IMG/VR virus record: IMGVR_UViG_3300032235_000647
Coordinates: 32,001-96,000 of that record
DNA: 64,000 nt
DNA from: a virus
Strand: one strand, 5' to 3'
Shown here: piece by piece, positions 23,984 to 43,369 of the stretch
Layout of the letters: the number at the start of each line of letters is the position of its first letter
How positions within the stretch are numbered: the first letter of the stretch is position 1
Position numbers and translations under genes: made by a program
Notes under the pieces: model-generated
Databases searched by the model: none
Told to the model about the DNA's origin: nothing
What the model saw: the letters and a program-made list of their open reading frames with translations, nothing else

Positions 23984-24016
23984 TCTTTTTGAAAATATTT
24001 AAAAAAAAAAAGATAT

Positions 24017-26798: not shown

Positions 26799-28415
26799 TT
26801 ATACTAAAGCTAAATCTTTAACATAAATCTTACCATAGAATTCAGGACGAACCATCTTCTTAGCGTAACGAGTCATTACCCCGCGTCTTGGAGTAAAGTT
26901 AGTTGGATCGTACACTAATGGAGTCATAATCAATGGAACGTAAGGAGCGTATACAGCACCAGTCTCAAGGAAGTTAGAACCTTTGAAACCTAACAAAATC
27001 TCGTTAGATGTCATGTAAGGGTTCTTGTAAACAGTATATCTGTTTGCCATTGAACCAACTTGAGAAACACCAGCAGCAAACTGCATAGCATCTTTATCAG
27101 CATTTACCATGAATCCTGGGATTGATTCCAAGATAGTAGCTACATCTGGAGATACTACAACGAAGTTAGCACCACCACGAAGAGTTAATTGGTGAATCTT
27201 GTTAGATACTTTGTTCAACTTAGCACCAAGAGTTTGGAACCAAGTGTTCTTAGTGTAAGCAGCAGCGTTAGTACCAGCTACCCAAGTAGAACCATTCCAC
27301 TCTTCACCCAATGTTGCTGACCAGTACTCAGTAGTCAAAGCGTTAGCCTTCAACATATCAAGGATTTCAAGGTCAATCTCCAAAGAGATGTACTCTGACA
27401 ACATTGAAGTTAATTCAGCTTCTGCATCGATTGAGTGGTAAGCGTTCAAATCTTGAGCAAGTTCAGGAGTCCAAACTGCCTTCAACTTACGAGTCTTGGC
27501 TACGATAGCCTCAGAACGAAGTTCCAAATCAACTTCAGGAATACCTAAATCAGTTGCTGGTTCAGTTGGGTTAGCATCTTCGAAATCACCTCTTGTGTTA
27601 GCAGTTGGCTGCTTAGCATAAGTAATAGCGATTGAAGAAGTTGCGTTAGTTAAAGAAGTAACTTTTGCATAGAATACTGCAGAAGTTCCAGATAAATCAG
27701 AGTGAGCTGGGTAGAAAGTATCAGCTGCAGAGAATGCAGATGAAGAGATGTAAAATGCCTTAACACCTTCTAAATCAGCAGAAGTAAAGTTACCAGCCTG
27801 AGGGATAGTAATTTTAGCCAAAGTAGAGTTAGCTACTGAAGATGACAAAGAAGCATCAAATCCAACTTCTAACCAAGATGCAGTTGCAACAGTATAAGAA
27901 CCAGAAGCAATAGTTGCAGCTGATTCGTTGATAGTGTATGCAAATCTACCATCACCATAAAGACCGTTTACAGCAGCCTTAGTTCTACCGAAGTCACCAT
28001 TGAATGCTGATGTACCATTACCACCGAAAAGTGATTTTCCAGAGAATGCAGGATTAGAGGCTACAGCAGTACCATACTTGAAATCAAGATAGAAAATAAG
28101 ACCAGATGGAAGGTTCATTGGTTGAACTGAAACGAATTCTTTCGCTGCAATTTCACCAAAGATTCTTCTTACCAATGGAAGGGCTACGCCAGACCATTCT
28201 TCAGAACCTGCAGAGGTTCCGGTAGCAGTAGCTTCGTCAAGCAATTGTTTTGCTTGGTTTTCCAAAAGAACTGCGATTTGAGATTGCTCTCTAGATTTTA
28301 AACCTTCAAGAAGTCCAGTTTTTGCCCACTTAGCTTGTAACTGACGAGTTTCAGCCAACATTACTTGTTGTGGGTTCTTTCCTTCCATTAGTTTAGATAA
28401 ATTAAAATTTGCCAT
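26799..28415 (-). CDS. gp23: Major capsid protein, T4 gp23-like
   Basis: KWAKTGLLEGL, VSVQPMNLPSGLIFYL, AKTRKLKAVWTPELAQDLNAYHSIDAEAEL, YAPYVPL and PRRGVMTRY; strong codon bias; AGGAG at 28429-28425. Confidence 0.97.
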   Translation of the reverse strand: MANFNLSKLMEGKNPQQVMLAETRQLQAKWAKTGLLEGLKSREQSQIAVLLENQAKQLLDEATATGTSAGSEEWSGVALPLVRRIFGEIAAKEFVSVQPMNLPSGLIFYLDFKYGTAVASNPAFSGKSLFGGNGTSAFNGDFGRTKAAVNGLYGDGRFAYTINESAATIASGSYTVATASWLEVGFDASLSSSVANSTLAKITIPQAGNFTSADLEGVKAFYISSSAFSAADTFYPAHSDLSGTSAVFYAKVTSLTNATSSIAITYAKQPTANTRGDFEDANPTEPATDLGIPEVDLELRSEAIVAKTRKLKAVWTPELAQDLNAYHSIDAEAELTSMLSEYISLEIDLEILDMLKANALTTEYWSATLGEEWNGSTWVAGTNAAAYTKNTWFQTLGAKLNKVSNKIHQLTLRGGANFVVVSPDVATILESIPGFMVNADKDAMQFAAGVSQVGSMANRYTVYKNPYMTSNEILLGFKGSNFLETGAVYAPYVPLIMTPLVYDPTNFTPRRGVMTRYAKKMVRPEFYGKIYVKDLALV

Positions 28416-28439
28416 TTTTATTGTCTCCTAATGTTTTGT

Positions 28440-29528
28440 TTATTTAATATTTGCTAATTGTTTGAATCTTTCAGCTAAAGCATTGCTTTCAGAAATAATC
28501 TCCTTCTTAGGAGCAGTTGAAGCAACTGGCTTAGATGCAAATGATTCGGTTAATTTGGTTTGTTTTACTTTTTTAGATGTACCACCCATTTTAAGTGATT
28601 CAGCTAAAGTAGAGAATACTAGTTTTACTTCTCTAACATTACCAGTTCTGTCTAATGTTTCAACAACTTTGTGCTTTTGCTCATTTGTCAAATCATAAGA
28701 ACGGAATAATTTGTTAGTGTAAAGTAATTTAGCGTTCAATAAGTTTACTTCATTAATGGTTTTCTTTAATGATTTGATTACTTTGTAAGCTTCTTCAAGT
28801 TCGGCTTCTTTTTCAGCCATTTCAGCTGCCATTTCTTCACCGTTTTCTTCTTCTTCAGAAACTTCTTCGTCATCACCATATCCCATTTCTCTCAAGATTT
28901 CGTCTAAATCGATTCCATCTGCTGCAGGCATTTCTTCTTCAGATTCTTCTTCATGCATTTCTTCGTCATCCTCTTCGTTCATTTCGTCTTCGGATTCTTC
29001 TTCGTGCATTTCTTCTTCCTCTTCTTCATGCATTTCTTCTTCACCTTCTTCTTCAAGTTCAGATTCCAATTCTCTGATGATTTCTGCTAAATCGAATTCA
29101 TCTTCGTCTTCTTCCTCTTCTTCAGGTAAATAAGATTGGGTTTCACCCGGTACTTCATCCTCGTCACCTTCAGATACAACATCATAGTCTTCTTCTTCTT
29201 TGCCTACTTCTGCTGTTTCTACTTCGGTATCAGGATTTCCTTTTGCTAATTCTGATGAGCTGTTAGCATCATCTGCTGGTTGCTTATTATCGCCAGTTCC
29301 AATATCAGATGCATCTTGATCTGGAGCTTCGCTTCCATCTGAATACTCTTCGTTTACTTCCTCTTCGTCATCCATATCTTCCATTTCTGCCTGGATTCTT
29401 CTGGATAAAGCGGCTTGTAATCTTGGAGCAAATGCTTCTTCTAGTGCGATTTTGGCGTTTGCAATTGCAGTTTCTCTAACGGCTTTGGCATCAGCAATAG
29501 CTTCTTTCAATAATTTTGAATTTGCCAT
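28440..29528 (-). CDS. gp22: Prohead core scaffold protein, T4 gp22-like
   Basis: Highly acidic coiled-coil protein immediately upstream of the capsid gene. Start placed at MANSKLLKEA (ATG 29528) after AGGAAGG. Confidence 0.8.
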   Translation of the reverse strand: MANSKLLKEAIADAKAVRETAIANAKIALEEAFAPRLQAALSRRIQAEMEDMDDEEEVNEEYSDGSEAPDQDASDIGTGDNKQPADDANSSSELAKGNPDTEVETAEVGKEEEDYDVVSEGDEDEVPGETQSYLPEEEEEDEDEFDLAEIIRELESELEEEGEEEMHEEEEEEMHEEESEDEMNEEDDEEMHEEESEEEMPAADGIDLDEILREMGYGDDEEVSEEEENGEEMAAEMAEKEAELEEAYKVIKSLKKTINEVNLLNAKLLYTNKLFRSYDLTNEQKHKVVETLDRTGNVREVKLVFSTLAESLKMGGTSKKVKQTKLTESFASKPVASTAPKKEIISESNALAERFKQLANIK

Positions 29529-29750
29529 TTTTTGACCTTCCTTTTGTTTTTTGTCCGTGAAATTATTAGGAGAATTCCAATGTGGGGTTGATTTAAGGTC
29601 GGTTGTTCGGTCACCACTTAATAAAGGGTATTCATTAACCAACTTTTTAATAAAAATTCACATTAATGGTGAATTAATTATAAATAAATATATAATATGA
29701 AAATTAAACCTATAATTTTCTATATAAAATATATATTTTTTGTAAAAAAA

Positions 29751-29999
29751 TTACTTTTTATTCTTTTTACCACTATTATACTCACCACTTGCCATTCGTT
29801 CCAACATAACTTTTCTTTGGTTTTCGCGAATAGCCTTTAATTTAGTAGTTCGTCTAACAGTTTTTGGTTTTGTAAATTCTTTTCTATCTCTCAATTCAAG
29901 AAGATGTCCTGAATCGTTTACTTTCTTTTTAAAAACCTTGAGTGCCTTTGCAATATCTCCGTTTTTAACTATAACCTTAATTAGTGCTGTTTTTGCCAT
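29751..29999 (-). CDS. rpsU: Phage-encoded 30S ribosomal protein bS21
   Basis: 82 aa, basic; VIVKNGDIAKALKVFKKKV..SG...ELRDRKEFTKPKTVRR matches the bS21 signature (ALxxFKK...ExRxRxxFxKP). Confidence 0.9.
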   Translation of the reverse strand: MAKTALIKVIVKNGDIAKALKVFKKKVNDSGHLLELRDRKEFTKPKTVRRTTKLKAIRENQRKVMLERMASGEYNSGKKNKK

Positions 30000-30042
30000 T
30001 TATATGAAAATTAATTTAATATAAGTATTCTTTTTTTATTTT

Positions 30043-30384
30043 TTAAGAACCTTTTCCTGTTCTAGATTTTTTACCACCAGTATGTGTAGATACATTTATT
30101 GGTTTTTTTCCTTGGCCTGGTGATTCGGAACCTCCTCTACCTGTCTTGTTTTGTGCTGCTCTTTTTCTACGAGTTGCAGATTCTTTTTCTTTTTTACTCA
30201 TAGTTTTTGCTTTTGCAGCAGGGACACACTTTGCATATCCACTCTTTTCTCCGCTCGTTCCACAAGGAGGATGTTTTCCACCAACTTTTTTACCAATATT
30301 AACCCACTTGGATTTGAACCAATTACGAAGGTCTTCATTGGTGGTTTGTTGAGATATTTCTTGTAGAATTTGATTGAGTTTCAT
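30043..30384 (-). CDS. Basic conserved phage protein, putative internal head protein
   Basis: MKLNQILQE leader; EDLRNWFKSKWVNI...PCG...YAKCVPAAKA motif recurrent in phages. Confidence 0.7.
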   Translation of the reverse strand: MKLNQILQEISQQTTNEDLRNWFKSKWVNIGKKVGGKHPPCGTSGEKSGYAKCVPAAKAKTMSKKEKESATRRKRAAQNKTGRGGSESPGQGKKPINVSTHTGGKKSRTGKGS

Positions 30385-30539
30385 TAGTCCTTACATTTTT
30401 TCCAACCACCACCCTTACCTTTGTAGTTTTTTGCAGCCCATCCATTTGCATAAGCAGAAGGATATACATCAAACTTCTTTTTTGCTGCTGCTTTGGATGC
30501 AGACCATTTTTCAGGGTCAGTTGGGCAATTCTTTTCCAT
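30384..30539 (-). CDS. 51-aa basic domain (KFDVYPSAYANGW), stand-alone or a -1 frameshift extension of the upstream gene
   Basis: MEKNCPTDPEKWSASKAAAKKKFDVYPSAYANGWAAKNYKGKGGGWKKCKD; its stop overlaps the next ATG (TAATG); the frame is open back to the A10 run. Confidence 0.7.
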   Translation of the reverse strand: MEKNCPTDPEKWSASKAAAKKKFDVYPSAYANGWAAKNYKGKGGGWKKCKD

Positions 30540-30568
30540 CAATTTTTGGACTTCTTCACCTAATCTAA

Positions 30569-31216
30569 TTAATTCAGATTTTTTTTTTCGTCTAGTTTAG
30601 ATTCTAACTTAGTTCTTATTTTATTAGTAACTCTATTCAATTCTTTTTTATCAATACCTAGTGCATCCAAAACTCTACCCATTACTTGTAATTTTTGTGG
30701 ATATGTTAGTTTCTTTGCATCAAGTATATCTAACGCCTTTTGTAATTTGAGTCTTACATCACCGGGAATTGGTGCCTTATTAACATCTTCACCTGCTTCG
30801 GATATGGATTCTCTGATTCCTAATCTTTTTTTCATTTCGTCTTCAGTAATTTCTCCCATCTTGTAATATCTATTAAGAATATGACCCATATCTTCATACA
30901 ATCCGTGTAATCTCTGGTCTAATGAATTAGCTTCAGTTGCACACTTATCAAACTCTTTACCTAACTTATCTAATTCATTCAAGTTTCGTTTGATAGTCAC
31001 TTTATCAAACCAGTCATCACTTTCACCTAACAATAAAGTTTTTGCAGCTTCGGTAATTCCACCTAAAACTTCTGCAACTTCGGTAATATCGGATTTTCTA
31101 TCCATCATTTCTTGATATTTGTTATATGTAGAAATGATTTCAAGGAAGTGTTTCTTCACTTGAGGTGATAATGTTCTAGGTTCTTCGTTTTCTTTTAGTA
31201 ATTTAGTTAATTTCAT
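30569..31216 (-). CDS. Putative internal head/core protein
   Basis: MKLTKLLKE leader and AGGAG SD; helical; ends just after an A10 run. Confidence 0.7.
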   Translation of the reverse strand: MKLTKLLKENEEPRTLSPQVKKHFLEIISTYNKYQEMMDRKSDITEVAEVLGGITEAAKTLLLGESDDWFDKVTIKRNLNELDKLGKEFDKCATEANSLDQRLHGLYEDMGHILNRYYKMGEITEDEMKKRLGIRESISEAGEDVNKAPIPGDVRLKLQKALDILDAKKLTYPQKLQVMGRVLDALGIDKKELNRVTNKIRTKLESKLDEKKNLN

Positions 31217-31235
31217 TAGTATATTCTCCTATATG

Positions 31236-31487
31236 TTAATAAATACCAGGTCGGTCACCTTTTTTCATGGTATCTGCCCAAGTTTGAAACATTTTTTTAA
31301 TATCTGCTGGTAATTGTTTATCTCTTATCGTTAAAACTCCATCTTTACTGATATGGGCAATTATTTTATAGTCACCATTTTTTTCTTCGGCTCTATTCCA
31401 AATAGTTAAACCATTACCCATCCATCCCGAACCGATATCGTATTTTTTTGTTTCTTTAAGAATTGAAGTTAAACGAGTTGATTTCAT
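31236..31487 (-). CDS. Small putative internal head protein
   Basis: MKSTRLTSILKE leader and AGGAG SD. Confidence 0.7.
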   Translation of the reverse strand: MKSTRLTSILKETKKYDIGSGWMGNGLTIWNRAEEKNGDYKIIAHISKDGVLTIRDKQLPADIKKMFQTWADTMKKGDRPGIY

Positions 31488-31499
31488 TAGTATAATCTC

Positions 31500-34289
31500 C
31501 TATCTAAATTTATTAATCAAGGATCTAAAACGAGATCCAAGTGAACCTTTTTTTGATTTATCAGCATCCGATTCTCTGTCACGATTTTGAGTAGGTGGCG
31601 GAGGAGGAGGCGGTGGCGGTGGAATTGAACCTGCTGGTCTTGGTTTCACACCTGGTGCACTTCCACTCTTTGGAATCGGTGGAGGTGGAGGTGGAGGAAG
31701 TTTACGAGCAGGTGCTGCAGCCTTTGGTGCTACCGTAGGTGGAACTTTAACCGAAGGTTTAGTATCCCACTTACTATTAGGTGCAACTGCTTTTGAAGAA
31801 TCCCATCCACTTGGTGCATTTTTTATCCAATCTGGCTCTTCCCATGCTCCTCCTTTTGAAGTTGTAGGTGGAGGAGTTTTCAAAGATGGTTTTCCACTAG
31901 GTGGTGGAGGTGGAGGTGGCGGTGGAACCGCACCTTTTGGTCTTACACCAGGAGGTGTTCCAACAGATTTTCCACTAGGTGGAGCAATAACTGGTGGTTT
32001 AGCCTTTACACCAGGAGGTGGACCGAGTGGTGCCTTTGGTGCAGAAGGTGGAGCAATAACTGGTGGTTTAGCCTTTACACCAGGAGGTGTTCCAACAGAT
32101 TTTCCACTAGGTGGTGGAGGTGGAGGTGGCGGTGGAACCGCACCTTTTGGTCTTACACCAGGAGGTGGTCCCATAACTTTAGTTCCAACAGGTGGTTGAG
32201 CATTTTTAGGAGGTGGACCCATTACTTTAGTTCCAACTGGTGGTTGAGCATTTCTAGGAGGGGCACTTGTCACCTTAGTTCCCATTGCTGGTTTAGCATT
32301 AGTTGGAGGTGGACCCATTACTTTAGTTCCCATTGCTGGTTTAGCATTAGTTGGTGCTTGTTGTTTTACATCCGGAGCGTGCTTAAACATATTCGAACCT
32401 TTTATTGCAGCACCTGCTGGTTTTTTTGGTTCATTTCCTGCACTTGATGACTTAGAATCAGTTGGTGTATATTTCCCACTATCATCTTTCTTAAATGTAG
32501 GTGCATTTGCATCCTTTTCCTTGCCCTTTTCCTTATATCTACCATATCCAATATGGGTATATTTATCATCCTCACTTGCTTCTTTAAGAATTGAAGTTAA
32601 ACGAGTTGATTTACTCTCTTTAATTACTGATTGAATTGTATCTGCTAATTTGTGAAAACCATTCATTCTTAGAGTATACGCGATACCATCAATTGCAGTA
32701 TCACCACTCCATTCTGCTTCTTGTGAAGCAGTTGTTCCTAAATTTCTAGCAAATCTATCAACATCATCGGTATACTTAGATGCATATTTTGCTCGAATTG
32801 CATTCATCTTTTCTTTATAATTAGGGTCATCCATTGATGGGTAATCTGGTTTTTCTGCCAACTCAGGTTTTCCTTCTAATTTAGCAACCAATTCTCTTGC
32901 TTCACCATGGAAGTTCGAATCAGTTAATGCTTCAACTGCTGCTTGAGCCATTTGTTTTTGATATTCTTCTTTACCTAATTTCTCAGGAGTAATACCATAC
33001 GAATCTGCTTTTGCTTTTACTGCTTTATTTACCTTTGGATTACCTTTTCTTTGTTGTTTAGGTTGTGATTTGGGTTCTTCCATTGAATCATCAAATGATT
33101 TTGCATCATTCCAATCATCAGGAACTATGAATGTATCACTACCATAGGTTTGAATACCTTTAACGGTTCCCATACCAACAAAGGTTGGTTTACCGTTAAT
33201 AACCAATGTTTGGTTTTTTGGATTCATTACTACTTCACCACTATATTCTTTATCACCATCCTTATAGACTACGGGTCTTCCTACTTCAAAGTCATCACCC
33301 CATCTATCTGGTTTTGATGATTTTGGTTCATCTTTTTTAGGACCCTCTTGATTTGCATCAGCCTTCTTAGCGGCAACTCCAATTTCTTCAGCAAATTTGT
33401 TTGCCATAGGAATTGCATCCTTGATATCCATATCAATTACAATAACTTTCATGTTAGCAGGTTTTCCATCTGCAATTGCGGCGGAAGTTACGGCTGCCCA
33501 TCTATGGTGACCATCAATTACATATCCATCTCTACTCACATAGATTGGGGCTGTTATTGCTGGATGGTTAGGGTCTTTTTCTAATGCCTTTGACATACCA
33601 GCTACTTTAGCACCAACCAATTCAGATTGAGTTGCTTTTAATCTATCGGATGGTATTTCAGTTTCTGCAGTTTTGATACCTTTTTCCTTCAACATTTTTT
33701 TGAACACTGGTTCAGTATCAACTTCACCACTAGCATCAACTGCCATTTTAGAAGCAGGAGAACCAGGAGTTGGTTTTCCTTTGAATTGTGGCATCTCTTC
33801 ACGAGGAATACCAGCATTACCTTCACAATATAAGTTAGTTCCAGGAACTGTTATTTTACACAAATTGAAGTTTGGTGCAGCTTCTCCTTTTTCTTTTGCT
33901 TGTTTTGCAAGTTCTGCTAACTTATCAATCTGCATTGAGATTTCTTTCTTCTGTGAATCAGGTATTTTATTTATGTCAGATTGTCCAGTAAAAGTTTCTT
34001 TATCTGCCTTCGGCATTAATGTTGTAAGTTTACTTGAAGAAACTTTTGGAGTATCTGATTTTTCTTTTTTATCCGAAGTCTTTGGTTTAGCAAAAATATT
34101 TACCTTTGGAGTATCTTTTTTAGAATCTTTACCACTTGTAGGCTCATCGGATTTAATAGGAACATATTTTCCTTGGTCAGTCTTTTTAAAAGTCTGAGCC
34201 TTAGGGTCTTTTTCCTTACCTTTTTCTTTATATTTACCATACCCAACGTGAGTATATTCGGCCTCTAAAAGTAAATTTTTTAATCTCAT
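31500..34289 (-). CDS. Multidomain putative internal head protein with a ParB/Srx-like domain and proline-rich tail
   Basis: Probable start MRLKNLLLE (GGAG upstream). Contains a LKATQSEL...PIYVSRDGYVIDGHHRWAA ParB-N motif, two YTHxGYG modules and P8 runs at the C-terminus. Confidence 0.75.
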   Translation of the reverse strand: MRLKNLLLEAEYTHVGYGKYKEKGKEKDPKAQTFKKTDQGKYVPIKSDEPTSGKDSKKDTPKVNIFAKPKTSDKKEKSDTPKVSSSKLTTLMPKADKETFTGQSDINKIPDSQKKEISMQIDKLAELAKQAKEKGEAAPNFNLCKITVPGTNLYCEGNAGIPREEMPQFKGKPTPGSPASKMAVDASGEVDTEPVFKKMLKEKGIKTAETEIPSDRLKATQSELVGAKVAGMSKALEKDPNHPAITAPIYVSRDGYVIDGHHRWAAVTSAAIADGKPANMKVIVIDMDIKDAIPMANKFAEEIGVAAKKADANQEGPKKDEPKSSKPDRWGDDFEVGRPVVYKDGDKEYSGEVVMNPKNQTLVINGKPTFVGMGTVKGIQTYGSDTFIVPDDWNDAKSFDDSMEEPKSQPKQQRKGNPKVNKAVKAKADSYGITPEKLGKEEYQKQMAQAAVEALTDSNFHGEARELVAKLEGKPELAEKPDYPSMDDPNYKEKMNAIRAKYASKYTDDVDRFARNLGTTASQEAEWSGDTAIDGIAYTLRMNGFHKLADTIQSVIKESKSTRLTSILKEASEDDKYTHIGYGRYKEKGKEKDANAPTFKKDDSGKYTPTDSKSSSAGNEPKKPAGAAIKGSNMFKHAPDVKQQAPTNAKPAMGTKVMGPPPTNAKPAMGTKVTSAPPRNAQPPVGTKVMGPPPKNAQPPVGTKVMGPPPGVRPKGAVPPPPPPPPPSGKSVGTPPGVKAKPPVIAPPSAPKAPLGPPPGVKAKPPVIAPPSGKSVGTPPGVRPKGAVPPPPPPPPPSGKPSLKTPPPTTSKGGAWEEPDWIKNAPSGWDSSKAVAPNSKWDTKPSVKVPPTVAPKAAAPARKLPPPPPPPIPKSGSAPGVKPRPAGSIPPPPPPPPPPTQNRDRESDADKSKKGSLGSRFRSLINKFR

Positions 34290-34291
34290 TC

Positions 34292-34489
34292 TTATCTCCA
34301 CTTATGGGTTGTTTCTACTTTTTTATTTGTATAAAGGTCTAATTTACCATCTTCGGTAAATTTAACTTCGTAATTTGTTTTTCTTATATCATTATGACCA
34401 CCTTTGTAGGGAGTATCGCCAACTTCTTTTTGGATTTTACCAACATTGATTGTATTCTTGGCCATATAATCTTTTATATCGAATGCCAT
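34292..34489 (-). CDS. Hypothetical head-module protein
   Basis: 65-aa ORF starting 4 nt after the protease stop. Confidence 0.6.
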   Translation of the reverse strand: MAFDIKDYMAKNTINVGKIQKEVGDTPYKGGHNDIRKTNYEVKFTEDGKLDLYTNKKVETTHKWR

Positions 34490-34493
34490 ATAA

Positions 34494-35084
34494 TTAGTGT
34501 AATTCTGTTATAATTTCTCTCATCAAGTCTTGTGCTTTGCAGTAATCACCACAAACAACACCCTCTTGAATGTTTTTATTTACTGATTCTTGTAATGGAG
34601 TCATGAACGCACCATGAGTAGATGGATTAGAAACGAAATCCCAACCAATCAATTCAAAGTCATCACCAACTTTTACCTTACCTTCACCTATATTCGTCAC
34701 CGAACCCATACCACGAGATGATATTCCTAATAGAATACCAGCTCTTAATAACTCTTTAAGTATATTTCCTGATGGAGTTGGAAGTATTTCAACGGTACCA
34801 ACCAAATCATCACCATCCCAATGAATTTCTCTTACATTGTGAGAAACATTCTTCAAGTTGATTACAGAAGAATCAGGATGGTCTAACTCGCCCAATGCTC
34901 TTCTTTCTTTAATAAGAGTTTCGTATTTCTTAGCCTCTCTCATTAAGATTTCTCTTGGATATATTCTACCATTTTGGTTTTCTGCACCTGCTCGTTGTAA
35001 AATACCCTTAACGAGAGTTCTTCCACTCGCGTCTTCGTTTATTCTACCTTCAAATAGGTTTGTTTCTATTAGTAATGATTTCAT
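34494..35084 (-). CDS. gp21: Prohead maturation protease, T4 gp21-like
   Basis: NQNGRIYP, ALGELDHP, VSH, GISSRGMGS and DFVSNPS catalytic motifs. Confidence 0.95.
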   Translation of the reverse strand: MKSLLIETNLFEGRINEDASGRTLVKGILQRAGAENQNGRIYPREILMREAKKYETLIKERRALGELDHPDSSVINLKNVSHNVREIHWDGDDLVGTVEILPTPSGNILKELLRAGILLGISSRGMGSVTNIGEGKVKVGDDFELIGWDFVSNPSTHGAFMTPLQESVNKNIQEGVVCGDYCKAQDLMREIITELH

Positions 35085-35092
35085 TTTAATCC

Positions 35093-36523
35093 TTATCTTT
35101 TTAATTTTACAACTTTAATAGTTGGTTTTACTGCTTCGTTTACTGACTCATCAGCTGGATACTTGATACCAAATTTTGCTAGCGCTTTTCTTTTGTATTC
35201 TAACGCCTTTGCAGCTCTACTTAGATATTTTTTAAAAAATGCAAGCATCTCCTCTTTTGTATCAAATGCCTGTGACCCCCTAAACTGTGTATCACTTAAA
35301 TCAGTAGTCCAAAATGCGGCAGAACCTCTATCATAGTCATAGTATCCTACAATTTTACCATTTAATAATATTTTACCATCTTTAGCAATTAGACTTTCGT
35401 TTACTGACTCTACTGCGTATTTGGTTTCCGATTCACCCAATTGTTTTCCAAATTCATCCCAAATCTGTAATGCTCTTTTTTGAACACCTTCTTTAGAATT
35501 ACTTGCACCAACTGGAATAACTTTCTGAAGTTTACCACGAACTACAAACCCACCATACATGGTCTCACCCTTTGTAGTTTTGACTACTACTATTTGAATA
35601 CCTTGTTCATTTTTAAGTTTACTTACAACTTTAATAGTTGGCTTTGATGCTTCGTTTACTGATTTACTTTCAGCCATACCATTATAAGTTAATAGTTTTT
35701 TATGTTTTTTAGCAAACATGGAAACTATTTTTAATACTTCGGCTTCACTCTTAATATATCTCTTTTCCTCAATGGTATCATTTTGTGTTCTTTGAACTAA
35801 CACATGATATGTTCCTTCAATTTTTTTATCGCCATCAACATATCCAGGTCCTCTTCTTACTTCTATAAGATTTGAATATAAAGGACTATCACCATGCATA
35901 GGATGGGGTAATATAAAGTAGTATTTTTCTTCTCCTATAAATCTACCACCTAATGGGGAATGGCCTACTTTAAGTTTATTAATACCCAATTCTTTTTTAA
36001 TAATTACTTCTATTTTTTTAGCAAGATTTGATGGGAAATGTTCGGTTGCTTCGTTTACACCCCCTACTTCGGATTTTCCTTCCGATACATCCCATTGTTT
36101 TTTAGTCATTATACTATGTCCACCAGGACTTTTCATGACCCATGCTTTTGCTTCACTACCTGATTTAAATGTTTTGACCAATTTTGGGCCTTTTGGAGTT
36201 TTTTCAATCCCAACCCATGCCCCAGATGCCATTGCTTCGTTTGTTTTACCAGCTCTTAATGCAGCTAAATCAGATGCCTCAATCTCACCATCACCATCAA
36301 CATCTAATTTGTGTTGATTGCCAGTCAATTCTTCGTTCTTTTCACCCTTAGCATCCCAAGCGGCATCAATTTTGTTAAAGAAAGCCTTTTTTTCTTCATC
36401 ACTCATATCAGGAATAGACTTTCCAGCCTTTTCTAATGCTCTTTTAAAGAACTCTTGATACTCTGATTCATCTATCATTACTTCTCTTACGATACCTTTG
36501 AATTGTTCTTTTGTTATTTTCAT
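35093..36523 (-). CDS. Modular putative internal head protein with an EF-hand-like motif
   Basis: QHKLDVDGDGEIEASDL; segments separated by repeated (S)VNE|A/S; AGGAG SD. Confidence 0.7.
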   Translation of the reverse strand: MKITKEQFKGIVREVMIDESEYQEFFKRALEKAGKSIPDMSDEEKKAFFNKIDAAWDAKGEKNEELTGNQHKLDVDGDGEIEASDLAALRAGKTNEAMASGAWVGIEKTPKGPKLVKTFKSGSEAKAWVMKSPGGHSIMTKKQWDVSEGKSEVGGVNEATEHFPSNLAKKIEVIIKKELGINKLKVGHSPLGGRFIGEEKYYFILPHPMHGDSPLYSNLIEVRRGPGYVDGDKKIEGTYHVLVQRTQNDTIEEKRYIKSEAEVLKIVSMFAKKHKKLLTYNGMAESKSVNEASKPTIKVVSKLKNEQGIQIVVVKTTKGETMYGGFVVRGKLQKVIPVGASNSKEGVQKRALQIWDEFGKQLGESETKYAVESVNESLIAKDGKILLNGKIVGYYDYDRGSAAFWTTDLSDTQFRGSQAFDTKEEMLAFFKKYLSRAAKALEYKRKALAKFGIKYPADESVNEAVKPTIKVVKLKR

Positions 36524-37173
36524 TTTTCTATCTCCTGAAGAGTTCTTGCTATGTTAATTAATCTTTCTTTTATTTTATAAATATGGGTGTTGGTTCTTTT
36601 CCAATAGTTATCGGAATCCAACTCATTGATGTTTTTAATCTTGTTATACCAAGAAAAAAACTTTTCAACTTCTGCCAATTGATATTTTAATTCTTTCAAT
36701 CCAGTTGCCAATTTTTTATTAGCATGCATTGATGTATCATTCTTTAATTCTAACCAACGATTTTCGGTTATAGATTCATCTATTTTAAAATCCTTGAAGT
36801 TTCCTATATGAGATGCAAGAGCAGCAGAATGATATAGTTTACCACTAATTTTATTTTTAAAACTATTTGCACCGATTTTAACAAAAGGTCCATATCCACC
36901 ACCTGAAACTTTAGCCCCATTTGGTAATCCCTTTAATTGTTTTTCTCTGTCTTGAAGATTTGTTTCAGTAATATTATCTACATCATTATCAACTACCGAA
37001 TACCCTAATTGAGTTGCAATTTTCTTTCTTCTTTGGGAATCGGATTTACGTGAAAAAGCATGAGGAGTCTGATATCCATCAGTATTACCTGTCACATTGG
37101 ATTCTTCTAACTCCTTTTCAACTTCGTGAATAAGTTCGTCTATGTATTTTTTAAGAGATTCTTTTTTTAACAT
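36520..37173 (-). CDS. Hypothetical head-module protein
   Basis: 217 aa; GYQTPHAF motif, several ITE| sites and a coiled-coil C-terminus. Confidence 0.65.
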   Translation of the reverse strand: MLKKESLKKYIDELIHEVEKELEESNVTGNTDGYQTPHAFSRKSDSQRRKKIATQLGYSVVDNDVDNITETNLQDREKQLKGLPNGAKVSGGGYGPFVKIGANSFKNKISGKLYHSAALASHIGNFKDFKIDESITENRWLELKNDTSMHANKKLATGLKELKYQLAEVEKFFSWYNKIKNINELDSDNYWKRTNTHIYKIKERLINIARTLQEIEK

Positions 37174-38020
37174 TTTTTATTTCCTTTACCAATTCATACG
37201 CCATCATTAAAGAAGAAACTTGTTCATCGGTAACTTTCTTACCAATTTTTTGTGTCTTTAATACATTAATAGTTTCTTTTAATTTGATTTTTGTAATTCT
37301 ATCTTCCATTTTTGTATAAATGGAATGTAGTTCAGTTATTACTAGTTTTAATTGATTAGAATAATATTCACCAAATTTAGATGTATTGGTAACATTGTTA
37401 ATATATTCTCTCAATAAATTTTTCTGAACATCATTGAGATTTGAATATTTCTTATTAAATGTTTCAAGAAGGATTTTATAAGTAAGTAAACGAAGATCCT
37501 TTTCTTGTTTTTTATAATCTTCAACCAGTCTATCTTCTTTTTGCTTTAATGTAGGACTTGATGTAGATATATGTTCTACCAATGTTAATTTTGAATCAAA
37601 TATATCTTTTATATCGGAAATATCAGATTTTTTAGCCTCAAATAGTTTATGAATCGAAGCCAATACTCTATAATTTGTTACAGGTGAAGTTAAGAAATTA
37701 TCAATTTCAAATGTTTCTTTAATTGCCTTTACAAGATTATATTTTTCTTTAATGAGTTTTTGTTCATCAAGTTTAGTTCTAGCCTCTAATATAGCATCAA
37801 TAAACTTTTCAGCTTTAGATTCTGTATTATACTTTTCATCTATTAAAAGTTTATATAGACGAAGTTCTTTAGATAATTCAGTCCCATTACCAAAGAATTC
37901 GGCTACAATTTTTTTAGCTTTCTCAGGAGAGTTGTTTAATATCTCTAAAGTTATTTGACGGGTTAATAGTTCAAATAGAAAACCCGTATTTTTAAATTTA
38001 GAATGTTTAATTTTTTTCAT
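37151..38020 (-). CDS. Conserved head-module protein between portal and protease (prohead core-like)
   Basis: 289 aa, helical; starts KHSKFKNTGFLFELL; occupies the position of T4 core genes 67/68. Confidence 0.6.
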   Translation of the reverse strand: MKKIKHSKFKNTGFLFELLTRQITLEILNNSPEKAKKIVAEFFGNGTELSKELRLYKLLIDEKYNTESKAEKFIDAILEARTKLDEQKLIKEKYNLVKAIKETFEIDNFLTSPVTNYRVLASIHKLFEAKKSDISDIKDIFDSKLTLVEHISTSSPTLKQKEDRLVEDYKKQEKDLRLLTYKILLETFNKKYSNLNDVQKNLLREYINNVTNTSKFGEYYSNQLKLVITELHSIYTKMEDRITKIKLKETINVLKTQKIGKKVTDEQVSSLMMAYELVKEIKNVKKRIS

Positions 38021-38094
38021 ATTTACTCAATTATTTATTTTGATATACTCAAAAACTCTTATATAAATATAAATATTTTTTTGATTTGTTATTT

Positions 38095-39831
38095 TTATTG
38101 ATTATCTAGTATATTTGATTCGTCTAACATACCTTTTGTTTCATGTAGATATTTTCTCTTCGAAGAAATACCATTAATATATTTCAAGGCTTTTTGTTCG
38201 GATGTTCGATGTTTTAACACATTATTATTTTCCTTATCACCAAGAGGGTCTCTACCAAATGGTGATTTATCTTTACCATAGGTATTACCCTCTCGTGGTC
38301 TTCCACCTTTATCTTTAGTTGCTTCTAATTCAGTTTTAAGTTGATTGAGAGATTCTTCAACATCTTCAGGTTCATTCTGCATAGCAGGATCATTACCTTG
38401 GTCTTCAATAGAACGATATCTGAATCTATCTTTAATATCATTAATAATTTTAACTCGTTGAACCTCTTGTTCACCATCTGCTAACTTAAAGATATTCTCA
38501 TAAACCCAATCTTTAGATAACATATTTAGACCAGCTATATCGGTTGCTAATCTTACCTTTTCAGACCATAGGTTTACTCGTTCTTGTTCGTAAATAGTAG
38601 ATGGGTTAATCAAATTCAATTCAAAGTTTGTCATTTCAACATCTTGAATTCCCTGAGAATATAAGTGAATGATTGCAATCTTTGATAATTCTGATATGAT
38701 TGTTCGTTGGATTCTTTCAATAGTTCTAGCAAAACGAACATCTTCTGCAGCAAGAGTAGCCTTACCATTTACATTCTCATCATATCCCAAATATGCCTTA
38801 GGAATTTTAAGAGCAGCAAAAAGTTTATTTTTTAGATATTGAATATCTTCAGTTGCTGCATAATCCAAACCTGAAATATTTTCGATAGAAGTTCCACTAT
38901 CGCCACCACGAACTGGTAAGAAGAAATCTTCTGTTAGGTTTTGCATATTATACTTCAAGTTATACTCACCACTATTTCTATCAATAAAAGGAACTTTCTT
39001 CATCTTATTGATAATTCGTTGCATGTAGTTATCAACTTCTTGTGGTGGGATATTACCGATATCAATTTTGAACACTCTTTTCTCAGGTGCTCTCATGATT
39101 CGGTGAATCAACATGGCATCTTCCATAAGAGATAATTGTTTCCACAATCTTCTACCATTTTCAATCATAGATTTACCGTATGGAAGCCAGTTTGTATCTG
39201 ATAATAATCTAAAGTGTGCAATTTCAAAGTTATCATATTCCATTTTACCCATAGGGTCTTCGGTAATTTTAAACTTTACTGCGTTTGGATTATTTGGGTC
39301 TATAAGTTCTAATCTTTCAGTATTATAAACTGAATGTGGGGTTGCGTTTACGATACCCTTTCCTTCTGCAATTTCCAACCCAAGAAAAAAGTCACCATAC
39401 TTACACATATTTCGTGTCCATGGCCATAGGTTGAATTCAACATTTAGAATATCATAGAATAAATTCTCTAGGGATTCTTGAACTCTATTATTATCCGAAC
39501 GAATTGAAAGGATTGTTCCAAATTCGTTTTTAAGTGTAGATTCATCTGCATAAATATCTAATGCAGAAGCAATGATTGGGTCTTGGTCCATTGCATCATA
39601 ATCACGAAAAACCTCTCTACGAACTTGCTGATATGCCATTGATTGGGCACCACCAGCCTGCTCGTAAAAGGATTTCTGCAACTTAGTGTATCTGTCCCTT
39701 AACGATGATAAGTTCGTTTGTTGTCTTTCATCAGTATCAACTACCCTTCTCTTACCATCTTTATCAACCGTAACAATTGCCTTTGATGAAAAGAGTTTGG
39801 ATAATCTACCGAAAAATGAAGTATCTGCCAT
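38095..39831 (-). CDS. gp20: Portal protein, T4 gp20-like
   Basis: QLSLMEDAMLIHRIMRAPEKRVFKIDIGN, EDFFLPVRG and DIQYLKNKLFAALKIP. Confidence 0.95.
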   Translation of the reverse strand: MADTSFFGRLSKLFSSKAIVTVDKDGKRRVVDTDERQQTNLSSLRDRYTKLQKSFYEQAGGAQSMAYQQVRREVFRDYDAMDQDPIIASALDIYADESTLKNEFGTILSIRSDNNRVQESLENLFYDILNVEFNLWPWTRNMCKYGDFFLGLEIAEGKGIVNATPHSVYNTERLELIDPNNPNAVKFKITEDPMGKMEYDNFEIAHFRLLSDTNWLPYGKSMIENGRRLWKQLSLMEDAMLIHRIMRAPEKRVFKIDIGNIPPQEVDNYMQRIINKMKKVPFIDRNSGEYNLKYNMQNLTEDFFLPVRGGDSGTSIENISGLDYAATEDIQYLKNKLFAALKIPKAYLGYDENVNGKATLAAEDVRFARTIERIQRTIISELSKIAIIHLYSQGIQDVEMTNFELNLINPSTIYEQERVNLWSEKVRLATDIAGLNMLSKDWVYENIFKLADGEQEVQRVKIINDIKDRFRYRSIEDQGNDPAMQNEPEDVEESLNQLKTELEATKDKGGRPREGNTYGKDKSPFGRDPLGDKENNNVLKHRTSEQKALKYINGISSKRKYLHETKGMLDESNILDNQ

Positions 39832-39872
39832 TTGTTTTCCTAATTTATATTATAACCTTTATTATTTTTATT

Positions 39873-40322
39873 TTACCACTTTCTACAACTCCAATATCTT
39901 GCTTTATGTCTTGGTCCTGGTGATTCACAATTATGTCTTGCTCTAAAAGATTTTCTTCTTTCAGGATTGTTCTTTTTAATTTTTACACCCTTTTGTCCGA
40001 AGTTAACTTTTACAACATTTCCTTGTGGATTTTTTACATATACCTTAAATTTCTTAACATCACCTGCCATTGGTTTTCCCAACTTCACTTCTCTACCTGG
40101 ATATTCTGCTTCATAAACACAATTACAATTTGCTTCCGTAAGTTCGGTTGTGTATGATTTTAAGAAATTTAGAAAATCCTCTTCATCTTCTTCTTCAACA
40201 TCAAGTTCGTCATAATCTAAAAAATTATGTTCTGCTGCATCAAATGGATAATCTTGAACATAACCATCAGTATTTTCTTTGATGGATTGTTTTTTATTTA
40301 AAATATTTTTTAACTTTATCAT
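39873..40322 (-). CDS. Conserved basic phage protein, putative internal head protein
   Basis: MIKLKNIL leader, an acidic linker, then KKFKVYVK...VNFG...RRKSFRARHNC...ARYWSCRKW; AGGAG SD. Confidence 0.75.
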   Translation of the reverse strand: MIKLKNILNKKQSIKENTDGYVQDYPFDAAEHNFLDYDELDVEEEDEEDFLNFLKSYTTELTEANCNCVYEAEYPGREVKLGKPMAGDVKKFKVYVKNPQGNVVKVNFGQKGVKIKKNNPERRKSFRARHNCESPGPRHKARYWSCRKW

Positions 40323-40374
40323 AATAGGGTCTCCTTATACTATAAATATATACTTCTAATAATAACCTATTATT

Positions 40375-41952
40375 TTAAATTAACCAAGTTAGGTCTTCAT
40401 CTTGATTACCAACTTTCATTGACCACGGATTTGTATCAACCGATGAATTGCCACCAAACCCATCTAATGTAAATGAGTGTTGCTGTATACCACCAAGCGT
40501 TCGTTTAGTTAAATCAACACCTTCTTGTCTCAAACGAAGTGCTGTATCTCTAACCCAAAGAGCAATTCCTAATGCCATTACAAGGTCATCATTGTATCCT
40601 CTCATTGCTTCTGCACGATTTCCCGTCCATATAAAAGTAAATAATTCATCTATCAAACGAGTAGAACGAATTGTCACGTCTTTTTCTCTAATGTATTGTT
40701 CTAACTTGGAAACAATAAGTGGACGAGTTTTCATTGTAGTTGAAAATCCAGCAACCATACCTCTTTCTTCTGCTCTGAATTTATTATGTAGTTGATGTTG
40801 GACATCTACATATTTTAAATCCTTACTCATGTAGAATAGATTTGAATAACCCCTATCGATTACTTGTTGAATTACTGCCCAACCAATGTTTGCGTTTTCA
40901 ATTACTAATAGGGCCTCATTATAATCAGTAGAAAGGGATACTAAGAAATTTCCAAAATCCTTTGTATCCATTTTTCCTTTGTATTCAGCCACTTGTGTTG
41001 CAGTTTCCACATCAAATACATGACACGCAGAGTAATCCGCACCATCACCCCTAGCAACGTCAGCTACAACCATGTATCCTTTGTTGTAATCAGGGTATTC
41101 CCATCTCCATAGATTATGGTCTATCCAAGTTTTTTCAATAGGGTCTTGGCAATATGATTCTTTGTAGAATTGTAATAATTGTGGGTCAATAACCGTGTCA
41201 CCAGAAGAAACGAAGTCACAATCACATTCTTGTGCTGCACCTTTCGGTCCTAATAATCGTTCTTGTTCATCTCTCCATGCTTGTCCTCGTTCTGGGTGAA
41301 CTGACCAATGTAGTCGGATTGTATTAAATCCGTTTGTTTCATCTTCTGCACCTACCCATGTTTTATGGAAAAAATTACCTACACCATTTGGAGTAGAAAG
41401 TATAATTGCATTACCACCCGTTGAAAGGGTAGATTGTGCAGATATCCAAATCTCTTCAATTTTATCAATGAAAGCAGCCTCATCAAATACCAATAGGGAT
41501 AGTGCTTCGGAACGGCCGGCGTCTCCTGCAGCAGAAGTTGCTTTGATTTGAGAACCATTCGAATATCGTAGAGATAATTTATTGTCTTCTACGGTAGTTT
41601 GTTTTAACCAACTCGGTAGGTATTGATTCATAACTCGAACCTTCGTTACAAGGTTCTTTGCCACCTCTTGCTTGGTTGCAATTACCAACACATTAAAGTC
41701 TTGGTTGAATAACATCTTCCAAAGTGAAAATCCTGCTACAAGAGTAGATATACCAGTCTGACGGGATTTTAGAACGATATTATATCTATGGTCTTTAAAT
41801 TCGGTGAGAGTTCGTTCTTGGAACGGGTATAAGTGAAAAGGAATTTTGCCACGAACAGGATGTTGAATCATACAATACTTCTTCATAAAGTAAATTGGAT
41901 CCGAAGCACATTTTTGATACTCTAACTTTATTATTTCCTTTAAACTCGGCAT
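40375..41952 (-). CDS. gp17: Terminase large subunit, T4 gp17-like
   Basis: LYPFQ, Walker A KSRQTGIST, Walker B LLVFDEAAF, STPNG, and nuclease motifs ADVARGDGADYS and DDLVMA. Confidence 0.97.
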   Translation of the reverse strand: MPSLKEIIKLEYQKCASDPIYFMKKYCMIQHPVRGKIPFHLYPFQERTLTEFKDHRYNIVLKSRQTGISTLVAGFSLWKMLFNQDFNVLVIATKQEVAKNLVTKVRVMNQYLPSWLKQTTVEDNKLSLRYSNGSQIKATSAAGDAGRSEALSLLVFDEAAFIDKIEEIWISAQSTLSTGGNAIILSTPNGVGNFFHKTWVGAEDETNGFNTIRLHWSVHPERGQAWRDEQERLLGPKGAAQECDCDFVSSGDTVIDPQLLQFYKESYCQDPIEKTWIDHNLWRWEYPDYNKGYMVVADVARGDGADYSACHVFDVETATQVAEYKGKMDTKDFGNFLVSLSTDYNEALLVIENANIGWAVIQQVIDRGYSNLFYMSKDLKYVDVQHQLHNKFRAEERGMVAGFSTTMKTRPLIVSKLEQYIREKDVTIRSTRLIDELFTFIWTGNRAEAMRGYNDDLVMALGIALWVRDTALRLRQEGVDLTKRTLGGIQQHSFTLDGFGGNSSVDTNPWSMKVGNQDEDLTWLI

Positions 41953-41957
41953 TATTT

Positions 41958-42377
41958 TTAGTTTACAAGTAATACACCAACTGCTATAACACCAACAATT
42001 GTTCCCACCTTATATAAAAAAGTTTTTCTCTTTTCTGATTTCAATTCCTTTAATAGGGATTCGGATTTTTCTCGTTCTAACTTAAATTGCTCATCTTTCT
42101 GTGTGATGATATAATCCAAATTAGTAATTTTAGAATTGAGAGTCAAAATTATTTCATCTTTAAGTACTAATTTTTGATTTGTTAATGAAAGAACTTTTTT
42201 AGTTTCTTCTAACTCAATGAGTGCACCATCCCCTTTAATTAAATCTTTGATGATTAATTTTGCAGTAGGAATTTTTAGTGCTACAATAGTATCAGTTTGA
42301 GTCTGATTCGTAACGGTCTGTGAAAAACTTGTTAAGGTCACTAAAATTAAACTTATTAACAGAATTAACTTTTTCAT
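41958..42377 (-). CDS. Signal peptide + coiled coil + C-terminal TM protein (spanin-like candidate)
   Basis: MKKLILLISLILVTLTSFS|Q, a heptad-rich middle and a hydrophobic C-terminus; overlaps the upstream gene by 86 nt. Confidence 0.55.
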   Translation of the reverse strand: MKKLILLISLILVTLTSFSQTVTNQTQTDTIVALKIPTAKLIIKDLIKGDGALIELEETKKVLSLTNQKLVLKDEIILTLNSKITNLDYIITQKDEQFKLEREKSESLLKELKSEKRKTFLYKVGTIVGVIAVGVLLVN

Positions 42378-42639
42378 TTGTATTTACCTTTATATTTCTT
42401 ATGTTTGTATTAACTGATGTAATATCAGTATCTAATAACCCAATTTCGGAAGATATGCTATCTATTTTTAAATCTAAATTTTTATTTACAAGTACAACCG
42501 AATCTATATTGTGTTGAATACTATCGATTTTTTGGTTATACATTTCTATATCCGTTTTTAGTTGTTTAGTAGAATAAATACTATATGCCAATAAACATAT
42601 TAAAACCAATAATAGAAACGATACATTTCCATTTTTCAT
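42292..42639 (-). CDS. N-terminal TM + coiled-coil protein (i-spanin-like candidate)
   Basis: Single N-terminal TM followed by heptads; AGGAG SD and late motif upstream. Confidence 0.55.
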   Translation of the reverse strand: MKNGNVSFLLLVLICLLAYSIYSTKQLKTDIEMYNQKIDSIQHNIDSVVLVNKNLDLKIDSISSEIGLLDTDITSVNTNIRNIKVNTNEKVNSVNKFNFSDLNKFFTDRYESDSN

Positions 42640-42654
42640 AAAAAAACTCCTTTA

Positions 42655-43311
42655 CTATAAATAGTGTTCTAATTTGTGTTCTTTTATAACCTCGAAAGCT
42701 TCATTTCGTTTTTCTACAACTTCTTTTAATTCAATTTCACCATTATCAATAATTTCTTGAATTTCAATCTTTACTTCATCGATTGGTTTTGGTAAACTCC
42801 ATTTTTCAACCGTTCCATCTTCATTAATAAATTCATAATAAGGTTTTAATTCAGTTAATGAGTGTTTTAATTCTTCTAATTTCATTTTACCTTCTACAAT
42901 CATACGAGTGTAAATTCGAAAATCTTCATATTCTTTCCAAATTCCAGCCCCTCTGAAATTATGTTCGATATCTGCCAAACAATTAATACAATATCCAGTT
43001 TTTTGTATTAATTTTTCATCATTTTTAGTTTTTTTAATCTTTTTACAACTTGGATTACTACATTCCTTTTTAAGATTTAAATAATTACGAATTTCTTGTA
43101 AGGCTTCGTGATTTTTTCCAGTTTTAATGGTATAACCTTCCTTTTTTTCGTATCTGTAAAATTCATCCTCCCAAATATCACCAACATTTCGTTGTTCTTC
43201 GGTTTTTGTCCAACCAATTTGAGTATTATTATCATACTCACCAGTTTGAATCATATCTACCAACTTTCTACGAGTTGGGTGCATATATTTTCGTTGAAAT
43301 TCTTTACTCAT
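42655..43311 (-). CDS. Hypothetical protein with Cys motifs
   Basis: CSNPSC and CINC pairs; late motif upstream; function unknown. Confidence 0.6.
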   Translation of the reverse strand: MSKEFQRKYMHPTRRKLVDMIQTGEYDNNTQIGWTKTEEQRNVGDIWEDEFYRYEKKEGYTIKTGKNHEALQEIRNYLNLKKECSNPSCKKIKKTKNDEKLIQKTGYCINCLADIEHNFRGAGIWKEYEDFRIYTRMIVEGKMKLEELKHSLTELKPYYEFINEDGTVEKWSLPKPIDEVKIEIQEIIDNGEIELKEVVEKRNEAFEVIKEHKLEHYL

Positions 43312-43369
43312 TGTTATACATTAGGTTATACATTATATATAAATATATAAAAATGAATAAAGTGATATT

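Follow-up and report, generated by a model that had tools for sequence, protein, structure and literature searches.

The subject of this analysis is a 64,000-nucleotide stretch of viral DNA (hereafter the window), comprising positions 32001-96000 of the 130,194-bp IMG/VR contig IMGVR_UViG_3300032235_000647, in which a gene for the ribosomal protein bS21 lies inside the conserved head block of a phage. We find that Shine-Dalgarno (SD) motifs are restricted to the late genes, where they have a regular spacing, and that the bS21 gene itself has none. The explanation that we favour, which is plausible but unproven and to which we give a little less than an even chance, is that the phage bS21 lets ribosomes with a masked anti-SD sequence read the SD-led late mRNAs. 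The window covers the late half of a T4-like myovirus from fresh water, and the contig, rated 65% complete in its IMG/VR record, is a fragment of a genome of approximately 250-290 kb. All but 4 of the 130 open reading frame (ORF) calls of the contig are on the minus strand.

SD motifs of the late genes

An SD core was defined as AGGA, GGAG or GAGG within -18 to -4 of a start codon, and genes were assigned to the virion and non-virion classes from family matches only. SD cores are present at 29 of the 126 starts, compared with 7.1% of random positions, 7.1% of 2903 other ATGs and 5.3% of shuffled leaders. As the original prediction had anticipated, the frequency differs by gene class: the core precedes 13 of the 19 annotated virion genes and 2 of the 24 annotated non-virion genes (Fisher p 6e-5), the two exceptions being a nuclease and a DUF5856 gene adjoining the neck genes; it also precedes 14 of the 83 unannotated ORFs. 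AGGA beginning between -18 and -8 is observed 26 times at the 126 starts, compared with 5.4 times expected. The motifs are complementary to the CCUCC core of the 16S 3' tail, lie 5-10 nt before the start, and occur above chance.

The individual motifs that had been listed for the late genes are all present in the sequence (the start at 34289 was left out of this check). The AGGAG and AGGAAGG motifs are given in Table 1; in addition, AGGA or GAGG precedes the portal and protease genes and the starts at 37173, 30384, 26701, 20592, 16564, 5104 and 562. The scaffold gene starts at ATG 29527 and not at TTG 29642 of the longest ORF, and its N-terminus, MANSKLLKEAIA, is common to the relatives. The pattern is not universal, as had been recognised from the start, and an SD is absent before the terminase, one baseplate gene and several fibre genes. 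The early island has none, and the stretch containing the glycan operon is at background level, with an SD at 0 of its 11 annotated genes. The original prediction had also looked to anti-SD pairing energies over all starts. These give an overall signal that is present but weak (12.4% of all genes at -6 kcal/mol or below, compared with 6-7%), as calculated with a generic 16S 3' tail whose sequence we assumed and which may not be that of the host; the signal resides in the gene classes.

A complete relative, G089 (288,673 bp with terminal repeats), has a major capsid protein (MCP) 82% identical to that of the window and an SD core at 56 of its 403 ORFs. Its late regions consist of 70-100 kb, with the baseplate genes; 130-170 kb, with the head, neck and tail genes; and 220-240 kb, with an endolysin-like gene and lectin-like proteins. 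They have an SD in 37 of 90 ORFs, compared with 19 of 313 elsewhere, where the genes are those for nucleotide metabolism, replication, tRNAs and a glycan operon together with many small genes. SDs are kept in the G089 orthologues of the MCP, scaffold, protease, sheath and tube genes. The confinement of SDs to late genes, with early genes that look built for SD-blind ribosomes, argues for the favoured explanation. In Pelagibacter phage HTVC008M, whose host uses SDs, SD-like cores are found in both classes (9/21 and 9/25 in the first 50 kb).

We note some features of transcripts in this region. A leader of about 100 nt before the scaffold gene (window 29528-29700) is conserved and common to G089. 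Some 40 nt before the AAGGAAGG SD it has a CTCCT that resembles an anti-SD, and it could form a hairpin that sequesters the SD. In two runs of one study, RNA contigs end with adapter at 29662-29664, and TATTTATTTATAAT lies about 12 nt upstream of this point; this hints weakly at a late transcript that starts there and includes the scaffold and MCP genes but not bS21. A scan for sigma-70 promoters and terminators around bS21 gave results at or below the shuffle expectation. The MCP and scaffold genes are covered by RNA contigs in 4 freshwater metatranscriptome runs of three studies, while bS21 is covered by none of the listed pieces, which as contigs cannot show level or starts.

The phage bS21 and its proposed role

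The 82-residue product of the bS21 gene matches PF01165 with 47.5 bits (cut-off 27; E 1.4e-12), with residues 8-60 aligned on positions 1-54 of the 55 in the profile, and a profile search of the window's own genome gave an identical PF01165 result. Of 26 PDB matches, the best 24 are bS21 chains (E 5e-6 to 0.17) and the other two are weak matches to IMP dehydrogenase. The gene order is large terminase (TerL), portal, protease, bS21, scaffold, MCP. The leader of the bS21 gene, ttaaattaattttcatataaATG, has no SD, in agreement with the original prediction and as our model needs, since the gene has to be translated by unmodified ribosomes. Neither a phage bS18 nor a phage bS6 was found in 5 records, and bS21 is therefore the only component of the anti-SD pocket that the phage could replace.

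The model follows the same logic as the system described in Flavobacterium johnsoniae, in which the 16S 3' tail is masked jointly by bS21, bS18 and bS6 (PMC7797042, PMC9976891). The masking signature of Bacteroidia-type bS21 is Tyr54, which stacks on A1534, a contact made by Ile55, and a C-terminal part that is short and weakly basic (Jha 2021, PMC7797042). When bS21, its C-terminal part or Tyr54 is missing, translation increases for SD-led mRNAs only (PMC7797042, PMC9976891). The Y54A mutation raises a strong-SD reporter by 70% and rpsU'-gfp 3-fold, and deletion of the C-terminal part (deltaC) raises the same reporters more than 2- and more than 4-fold; overall, strong-SD reporters are raised 1.7- to 5-fold; SD-less reporters are unchanged in both mutants, and purified mutant ribosomes behave alike (PMC9976891). 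In F. johnsoniae this is an autoregulatory loop of the host that involves one gene, rpsU, with an SD of 9-13 bp (PMC7797042, PMC9976891), whereas in the present proposal the targets of a phage paralogue would be dozens of late genes whose SDs measure 4-7 nt.

The phage bS21 does not have the Bacteroidia-type signature: it has no Tyr54 and no Ile55, and its tail is long and basic. HMMER aligns PDB chain 7jil_z (named 30S ribosomal protein S21, which we take to be from the F. johnsoniae ribosome) up to residue 53, so that Y54 falls on R58 of the phage protein; it also aligns the KAIY of 9i5v_9 on the phage KAIR. Three MAFFT alignments agree in placing Arg58 in the Tyr54 column, with Glu59 in the Ile55 column, and the Arg that the original prediction had placed at the Tyr position is therefore confirmed by both methods. 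Past the Tyr54 column the phage tail has 25 residues and a net charge of +5, compared with 10-12 residues and -1 to 0 in four Tyr-type cellular bS21. Arg is present at this column in 107 of 111 database relatives, in all 80 of the related cellular bS21, which come mostly from metagenome-assembled genomes (MAGs) named as Ignavibacteria and Melioribacteraceae, and in 11 of 15 Pelagibacterales bS21, the other 4 having Lys.

In the explanation that we favour, the SD-less phage bS21 gene would be translated by ordinary host ribosomes with a masked anti-SD. Its product would occupy the bS21 site on 30S subunits, where its grip on the 16S 3' tail would be weaker than that of host bS21. The freed anti-SD could then pair with the AGGAG or AGGA leaders carried only by late (virion and lysis) mRNAs, which would thereby gain an advantage in initiation over SD-less host and early phage mRNAs. 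We infer all of these elements: incorporation into the 30S subunit, release of the anti-SD, the translational gain, and the timing. The bS21 of HTVC008M enters Escherichia coli 70S ribosomes (Mizuno et al. 2019, as reported in PMC9723584 and PMC9976891). Like the present phage, HTVC008M is an aquatic T4-like myovirus with its own bS21; its host is SAR11, and its MCP is not among the best matches to that of the window.

Elements of this proposal have been put forward before. The large lake phages of Chen et al. (2022, PMC9723584), myoviruses of freshwater Bacteroidetes, have bS21 on the coding strand inside a TerL-portal-protease-MCP block, as here, and these authors proposed its substitution into host ribosomes to the advantage of phage late mRNAs, also as here. 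In contrast to the Arg of the present protein, their phage bS21 have Tyr (54/61) or another aromatic residue (7/61) at position 54, and they conclude that these proteins mask the anti-SD like the host protein. SD motifs on late genes, which are central here, are not mentioned in the parts of that paper on which we draw. McNutt et al. (2023, PMC9976891) speculate that phage bS21 replaces host bS21 and redirects ribosomes, and the parts of their paper used here contain no SD-led phage genes. A full-text literature search, with supplements outside its scope, found no paper linking phage bS21 to SD-led late genes.

Relatives, host and competing explanations

Loci were collected around bS21 and around MCPs related to that of Flavobacterium phage vB_FspM_immuto (NC_055915.1), and were kept if the MCP was full and they either contained bS21 or had 6 kb or more of upstream sequence (127 of 154 full-MCP loci). 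Of the 99 loci with bS21, 96 have an SD before the MCP gene, and none of the 28 loci without bS21 does, a difference between relatives that the original prediction had foreseen and that traces to a single event on the MCP tree. Among the loci with bS21, an SD precedes the MCP in 90 of 91 of Arg type and 5 of 6 of Tyr type. In the head region as a whole, ORFs with an SD number 559 of 1011 in the Arg type (91 loci, 49 distinct MCPs), 37 of 68 in the Tyr type (6 loci), and 18 of 285 in the absence of bS21.

A correctly spaced SD before the bS21 gene itself is rare, at 2 of 99 related loci, compared with about 55% for neighbouring genes, and 72 of the loci have no SD there at all. In the remaining 25 (for example L137, L155, L160, L164 and L001), GGAG lies within 8 nt of the bS21 start or abuts it, as in AAAGGAGA directly before the ATG, which is too close for normal SD use. 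The abutting GGAG might shut the bS21 gene off once the anti-SD is free. The bS21 gene of the window has no abutting GGAG.

The host probably belongs to Bacteroidia. The primary sigma factor of Bacteroidetes, sigma-A, has the consensus TTTG/TANNTTTG (PMC6847099, PMC9723704). The coding strand of G089 contains 34 TTTG-N17-21-TAHHTTTG sites, compared with 5.2 in Markov simulations (maximum 10), and 24 of the 34 lie 28-135 nt before a start, all in non-late regions; no TTGAC-N17-19-TATAAT site was found in G089. The nearest cultured relative without bS21, immuto, infects Flavobacterium. Its T4-like head and tail module is syntenic, its MCP is 53.5% identical to that of the window, and its late promoter, CTATTTATAAATA, is similar to the one in the window; its early promoters are of the type GTTG-N~20-TATATTTAG. 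Unlike the window, immuto has an SD core at only 2 of 44 annotated starts in its late 50 kb, and a search of it found no bS21, with annotation covering 1-150,000 of 160,410 bp.

The window's contig has about six early promoters of a variant type, TTGGA-N18-TAyATTAGTA, with a leader as in G089. Each gene of the early island stands behind a TTGGA/TAGGA-N18-TAyATTAGTA promoter-like site and the conserved leader GTAATAAGAGATAAC(C)CCTAAA, and this type of promoter and leader recurs many times in G089. The leader is found at the small early-type genes at 21700-23990 and also at genome positions 16391-17096, outside the window. CCCCT occurs at -18 to -8 before 6 starts (0.2 expected), of 22 occurrences on the whole coding strand.

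Other approaches to the host were less informative. A search for CRISPR links by BLAST of 18 kb of the head module against 401 genomes, from the family of an uncultured Flavobacterium MAG (G001), gave only misbinned phage contigs and short AT-rich matches, and eight near-exact matches of 26-32 nt had no surrounding repeats and provided no CRISPR link to a host. One 84%-identical copy of the epimerase (51003-51995) was found on a 23-kb contig (L202) binned in a Pelagibacterales MAG, and a search with the bS21 profile turned up one copy, which lies beside a scaffold gene on a 2.4-kb contig assigned to a Flavobacterium MAG. Both contigs are probably phage and are therefore worth little as evidence of host, and the binning is contradictory. 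The Bacteroidetes host of the original prediction is favoured by the G089 promoters and the kinship with immuto; the binning is weak and conflicting evidence, and no CRISPR link was found. The MAG G001 contains three short contigs (C196, C197 and C207; L004-L006) with phage-type bS21 genes, and its own rpsU (on C79) is of Tyr type with an extended SD, GAGAGGAGGTG.

Several observations weigh against the favoured explanation, and the most direct concern the tyrosine. Nine loci of Tyr or Phe type in the bS21-bearing clade, with short non-basic tails, have an SD at 72 of 154 flanking ORFs. Conversely, the Arg-type locus L411 has an SD at 1 of 14 ORFs, and the complete Arg-type genome G088 (270 kb, MCP 73% identical) at 28 of 361 overall and 5 of 13 structural orthologues, its MCP and portal having none; in LR756508.1, where a Met-type bS21 adjoins the MCP, the count is 0 of 8. 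Other lineages with a Tyr-type bS21 are at background (23/220 in L184/L246, L198/L219 and L251; 0/32 in LR756504.1). Arg versus Tyr therefore does not predict SD use. The original prediction explained the pattern by Arg in place of Tyr54 freeing the anti-SD; the equal SD frequencies of the Tyr-type (37/68) and Arg-type (559/1011) head regions speak against this as a general rule, and the sequences do not support the Tyr-to-Arg step as the determinant. The wider idea that phage bS21 redirects ribosomes to SD-led late mRNAs remains plausible once that step is removed, but since the tyrosine is not the switch the determinant should be looked for elsewhere in the bS21 protein, and phage bS21 alone is not sufficient for SD-rich late genes.

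Further difficulties come from phylogeny, SD strength and promoters. The presence of bS21 changes once on the MCP tree, which leaves 1 independent pair and makes a sign test powerless; the raw Fisher p of 4e-25 therefore describes one evolutionary event, and the association of bS21 with SDs is indistinguishable from an effect of lineage or host. The phage SDs are moderate, at 4-7 nt and about -4 to -9 kcal/mol, in contrast to less than -13 kcal/mol for the host rpsU SD (PMC9976891). The G089 promoter pattern has 18 sites on the other strand, so that the Markov expectation underestimates chance and the real excess is closer to 2-fold, and in the window's contig the relaxed pattern is not enriched (20 sites, 12.9 expected). 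Finally, Microcystis phage Mel-JY01 (PP395634.1; L318/L320), which with immuto is the closest cultured phage by MCP (54% and 53.5% respectively) and belongs to the bS21-bearing clade, has an Arg-type bS21 at the same position in its head module, and SD-like cores at 17 of 31 late and 20 of 50 non-late genes.

There is a rival explanation, which we consider unlikely but still a serious contender: the bS21-bearing clade would infect SD-competent hosts, either a non-Bacteroidia lineage or cyanobacteria, and would make ordinary use of SDs, kept on the most highly expressed genes, while the phage bS21 would resemble the SD-competent type of the host and serve another purpose, such as ribosome supply or stability. 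Like a host shift, bS21 presence and the SD-led MCP map to one split of the tree, and the recorded host of Mel-JY01, with its SDs in both gene classes, is Microcystis. Among cellular bS21, those of Arg type give the phage protein its best scores, up to 43 bits in the Bacteroidota sample, and the related set is mostly Ignavibacteria and Melioribacteraceae, whereas Flavobacterium-type and Pelagibacterales bS21 score about 25 bits; and Arg or Lys is the common bacterial state at the Tyr54 column, in the PDB alignments as in the cellular MAFFT alignment. However, SDs of the early and middle genes are at background both here (2/24) and in G089 (19/313), unlike those of HTVC008M. Tyr-type bS21 with short acidic tails, a hallmark of Bacteroidia, are found in the same SD-rich clade. 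The early promoters of G089 fit TAHHTTTG, whereas the -7 box of Chlorobi, as described for Chlorobaculum in the parts of bioRxiv 10.1101/172254 on which we draw, is without TTTG. Even the early promoters of Mel-JY01 resemble TTGCA-N19-GTAAnTTTGTA, nearer to the Bacteroidetes -7 box than to the cyanobacterial TATAAT, and its recorded host may deserve a second look; a literature search for Mel-JY01 found nothing. Its early genes have ACAGGAA 6-8 nt before the ATG.

Two other explanations seem to us less probable. In one, which we regard as quite improbable, a shut-off of the host depletes its bS21, and 30S subunits lacking bS21 and having a free anti-SD prefer the SD-led late mRNAs; the phage bS21 would then not be the unmasker but would keep some ribosomes replete for SD-less phage genes, or damp the rpsU feedback. 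F. johnsoniae ribosomes without bS21 do initiate faster on strong-SD and slower on SD-less mRNA (PMC9976891). The co-occurrence of Tyr-bearing, host-like phage bS21 with SD-led late genes fits masking better than unmasking, and the GGAG abutting the bS21 start in 25 of 99 loci is a possible site of feedback. On the other hand, relatives without bS21 could then use SDs too, yet 0 of 28 do; neither Tyr54 nor Ile55 is present in the bS21 of this phage, whose tail is basic; and neither a phage protease acting on bS21 nor any other shut-off factor came to light in this analysis. It is very improbable that AGGAG and AGGA act other than through the anti-SD, as the place where a late factor of the phage binds or cleaves (an activator of translation, or an RNase acting like T4 RegB) or as part of a late transcription start region. 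T rather than A often precedes the motif (TAGG 15 times, 3.1 expected), a departure from the perfect 16S complement, and in several genes the motif is close to the late promoter. Against this, the core is the canonical complement of CCUCC at 6-10 nt from the ATG, it is also found inside operons without a promoter (starts 31216, 31487 and 36523), and its distance from the ATG is fixed while that from the late promoter TATTTATA is variable.

Gene content of the window and significance of the phage bS21

The T4-like assignment comes from family scans (PF07068, PF07230, PF03237 and PF03420; phrog_23, phrog_4542 and phrog_219), which identified a Gp23-type capsid, a Gp20-type portal, a T4-type terminase and the genes for sheath, tube and baseplate wedge; other matches in the contig are to the neck, the tail fibres and the baseplate. 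The features of the window are listed in Table 1. The scaffold-like protein had no family match in the profile scans, and no tRNA genes were found in the 130-kb contig.

Between the head module and the glycan operon lies the gene for the 1829-residue protein (43370-48859), which has an N-terminal cytidylyltransferase-like domain, a DUF5661 and a weak, sub-threshold match to IF2_N (E 1.6e-4). The sugar-modification operon (48999-63814) contains three genes of the NAD-dependent epimerase/dehydratase family, RmlC, two radical-SAM proteins, split parts of a thiamine pyrophosphate (TPP) enzyme, and two proteins resembling family-7 (animal-type) galactosyltransferases, one of which is fused to a laminin-G/ConA domain.

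Table 1. Genes, SD motifs and promoter-like sites of the window, in window coordinates
Feature	Position	Strand	Remarks
Neck, tail-fibre and virion genes	1..20592	-	many with AGGA or AGGAG leaders; led starts 562, 5104, 16564, 16965, 18424, 18981, 20134, 20592
Island of small early-type genes	20648..23990	-	without SD
Major capsid protein (MCP, T4 Gp23 family)	26799..28415	-	PF07068, E 2.9e-76; phrog_138
AGGAG	28425..28429	-	9 nt before MCP ATG; duplex -7.3 kcal/mol
Prohead scaffold-like acidic protein	28440..29527	-	synteny with relatives and immuto
AGGAAGG	29535..29541	-	before scaffold start ATG 29527
bS21, 82 aa	29751..29999	-	PF01165, phrog_21469; without SD
AGGAG	31226..31230	-	9 nt before start 31216 (215-aa head-module gene)
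AGGAG	31497..31501	-	9 nt before start 31487 (83 aa)
Prohead protease	34494..35084	-	PF03420, phrog_207; TAAGGA 5 nt before ATG
AGGAG	36532..36536	-	8 nt before start 36523 (476 aa)
Portal (T4 Gp20 family)	38095..39831	-	PF07230; AGGA leader
AGGAG	40331..40335	-	8 nt before start 40322 (149 aa)
Late-promoter-like TATTTATA	40341-40348	-	near AGGAG of start 40322
Large terminase (TerL)	40375..41952	-	PF03237; without SD
AGGAG	42647..42651	-	7 nt before start 42639 (115 aa)
1829-aa protein and sugar/glycan operon	42655..63814	-	SD at background level

A stronger form of the favoured explanation, which we regard as doubtful, is that Bacteroidia, with their masked anti-SD, offer the phage a natural "private channel" of translation, to which its bS21 would be the switch by converting ribosomes into SD readers. 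SD-led late mRNAs would then be translated with little competition, host mRNAs being without SDs. The bS21 gene would stand outside the channel because it is SD-less, and in some relatives the GGAG abutting its start could close the gene after the ribosomes have been converted.

Phage bS21 is widespread, and the idea already in print, that it gives phage mRNAs an advantage, does not say, in the parts on which we draw, by what feature of those mRNAs the ribosome could select them. SDs confined to late genes, in phages of SD-blind hosts, would supply that missing feature. If true, the private channel would explain why bS21 is the ribosomal protein that phages most often carry. It would mean that a virus re-specifies ribosomes through one exchangeable protein, and would provide a ready-made orthogonal pair of ribosome and mRNA for the genetics of Bacteroidia.

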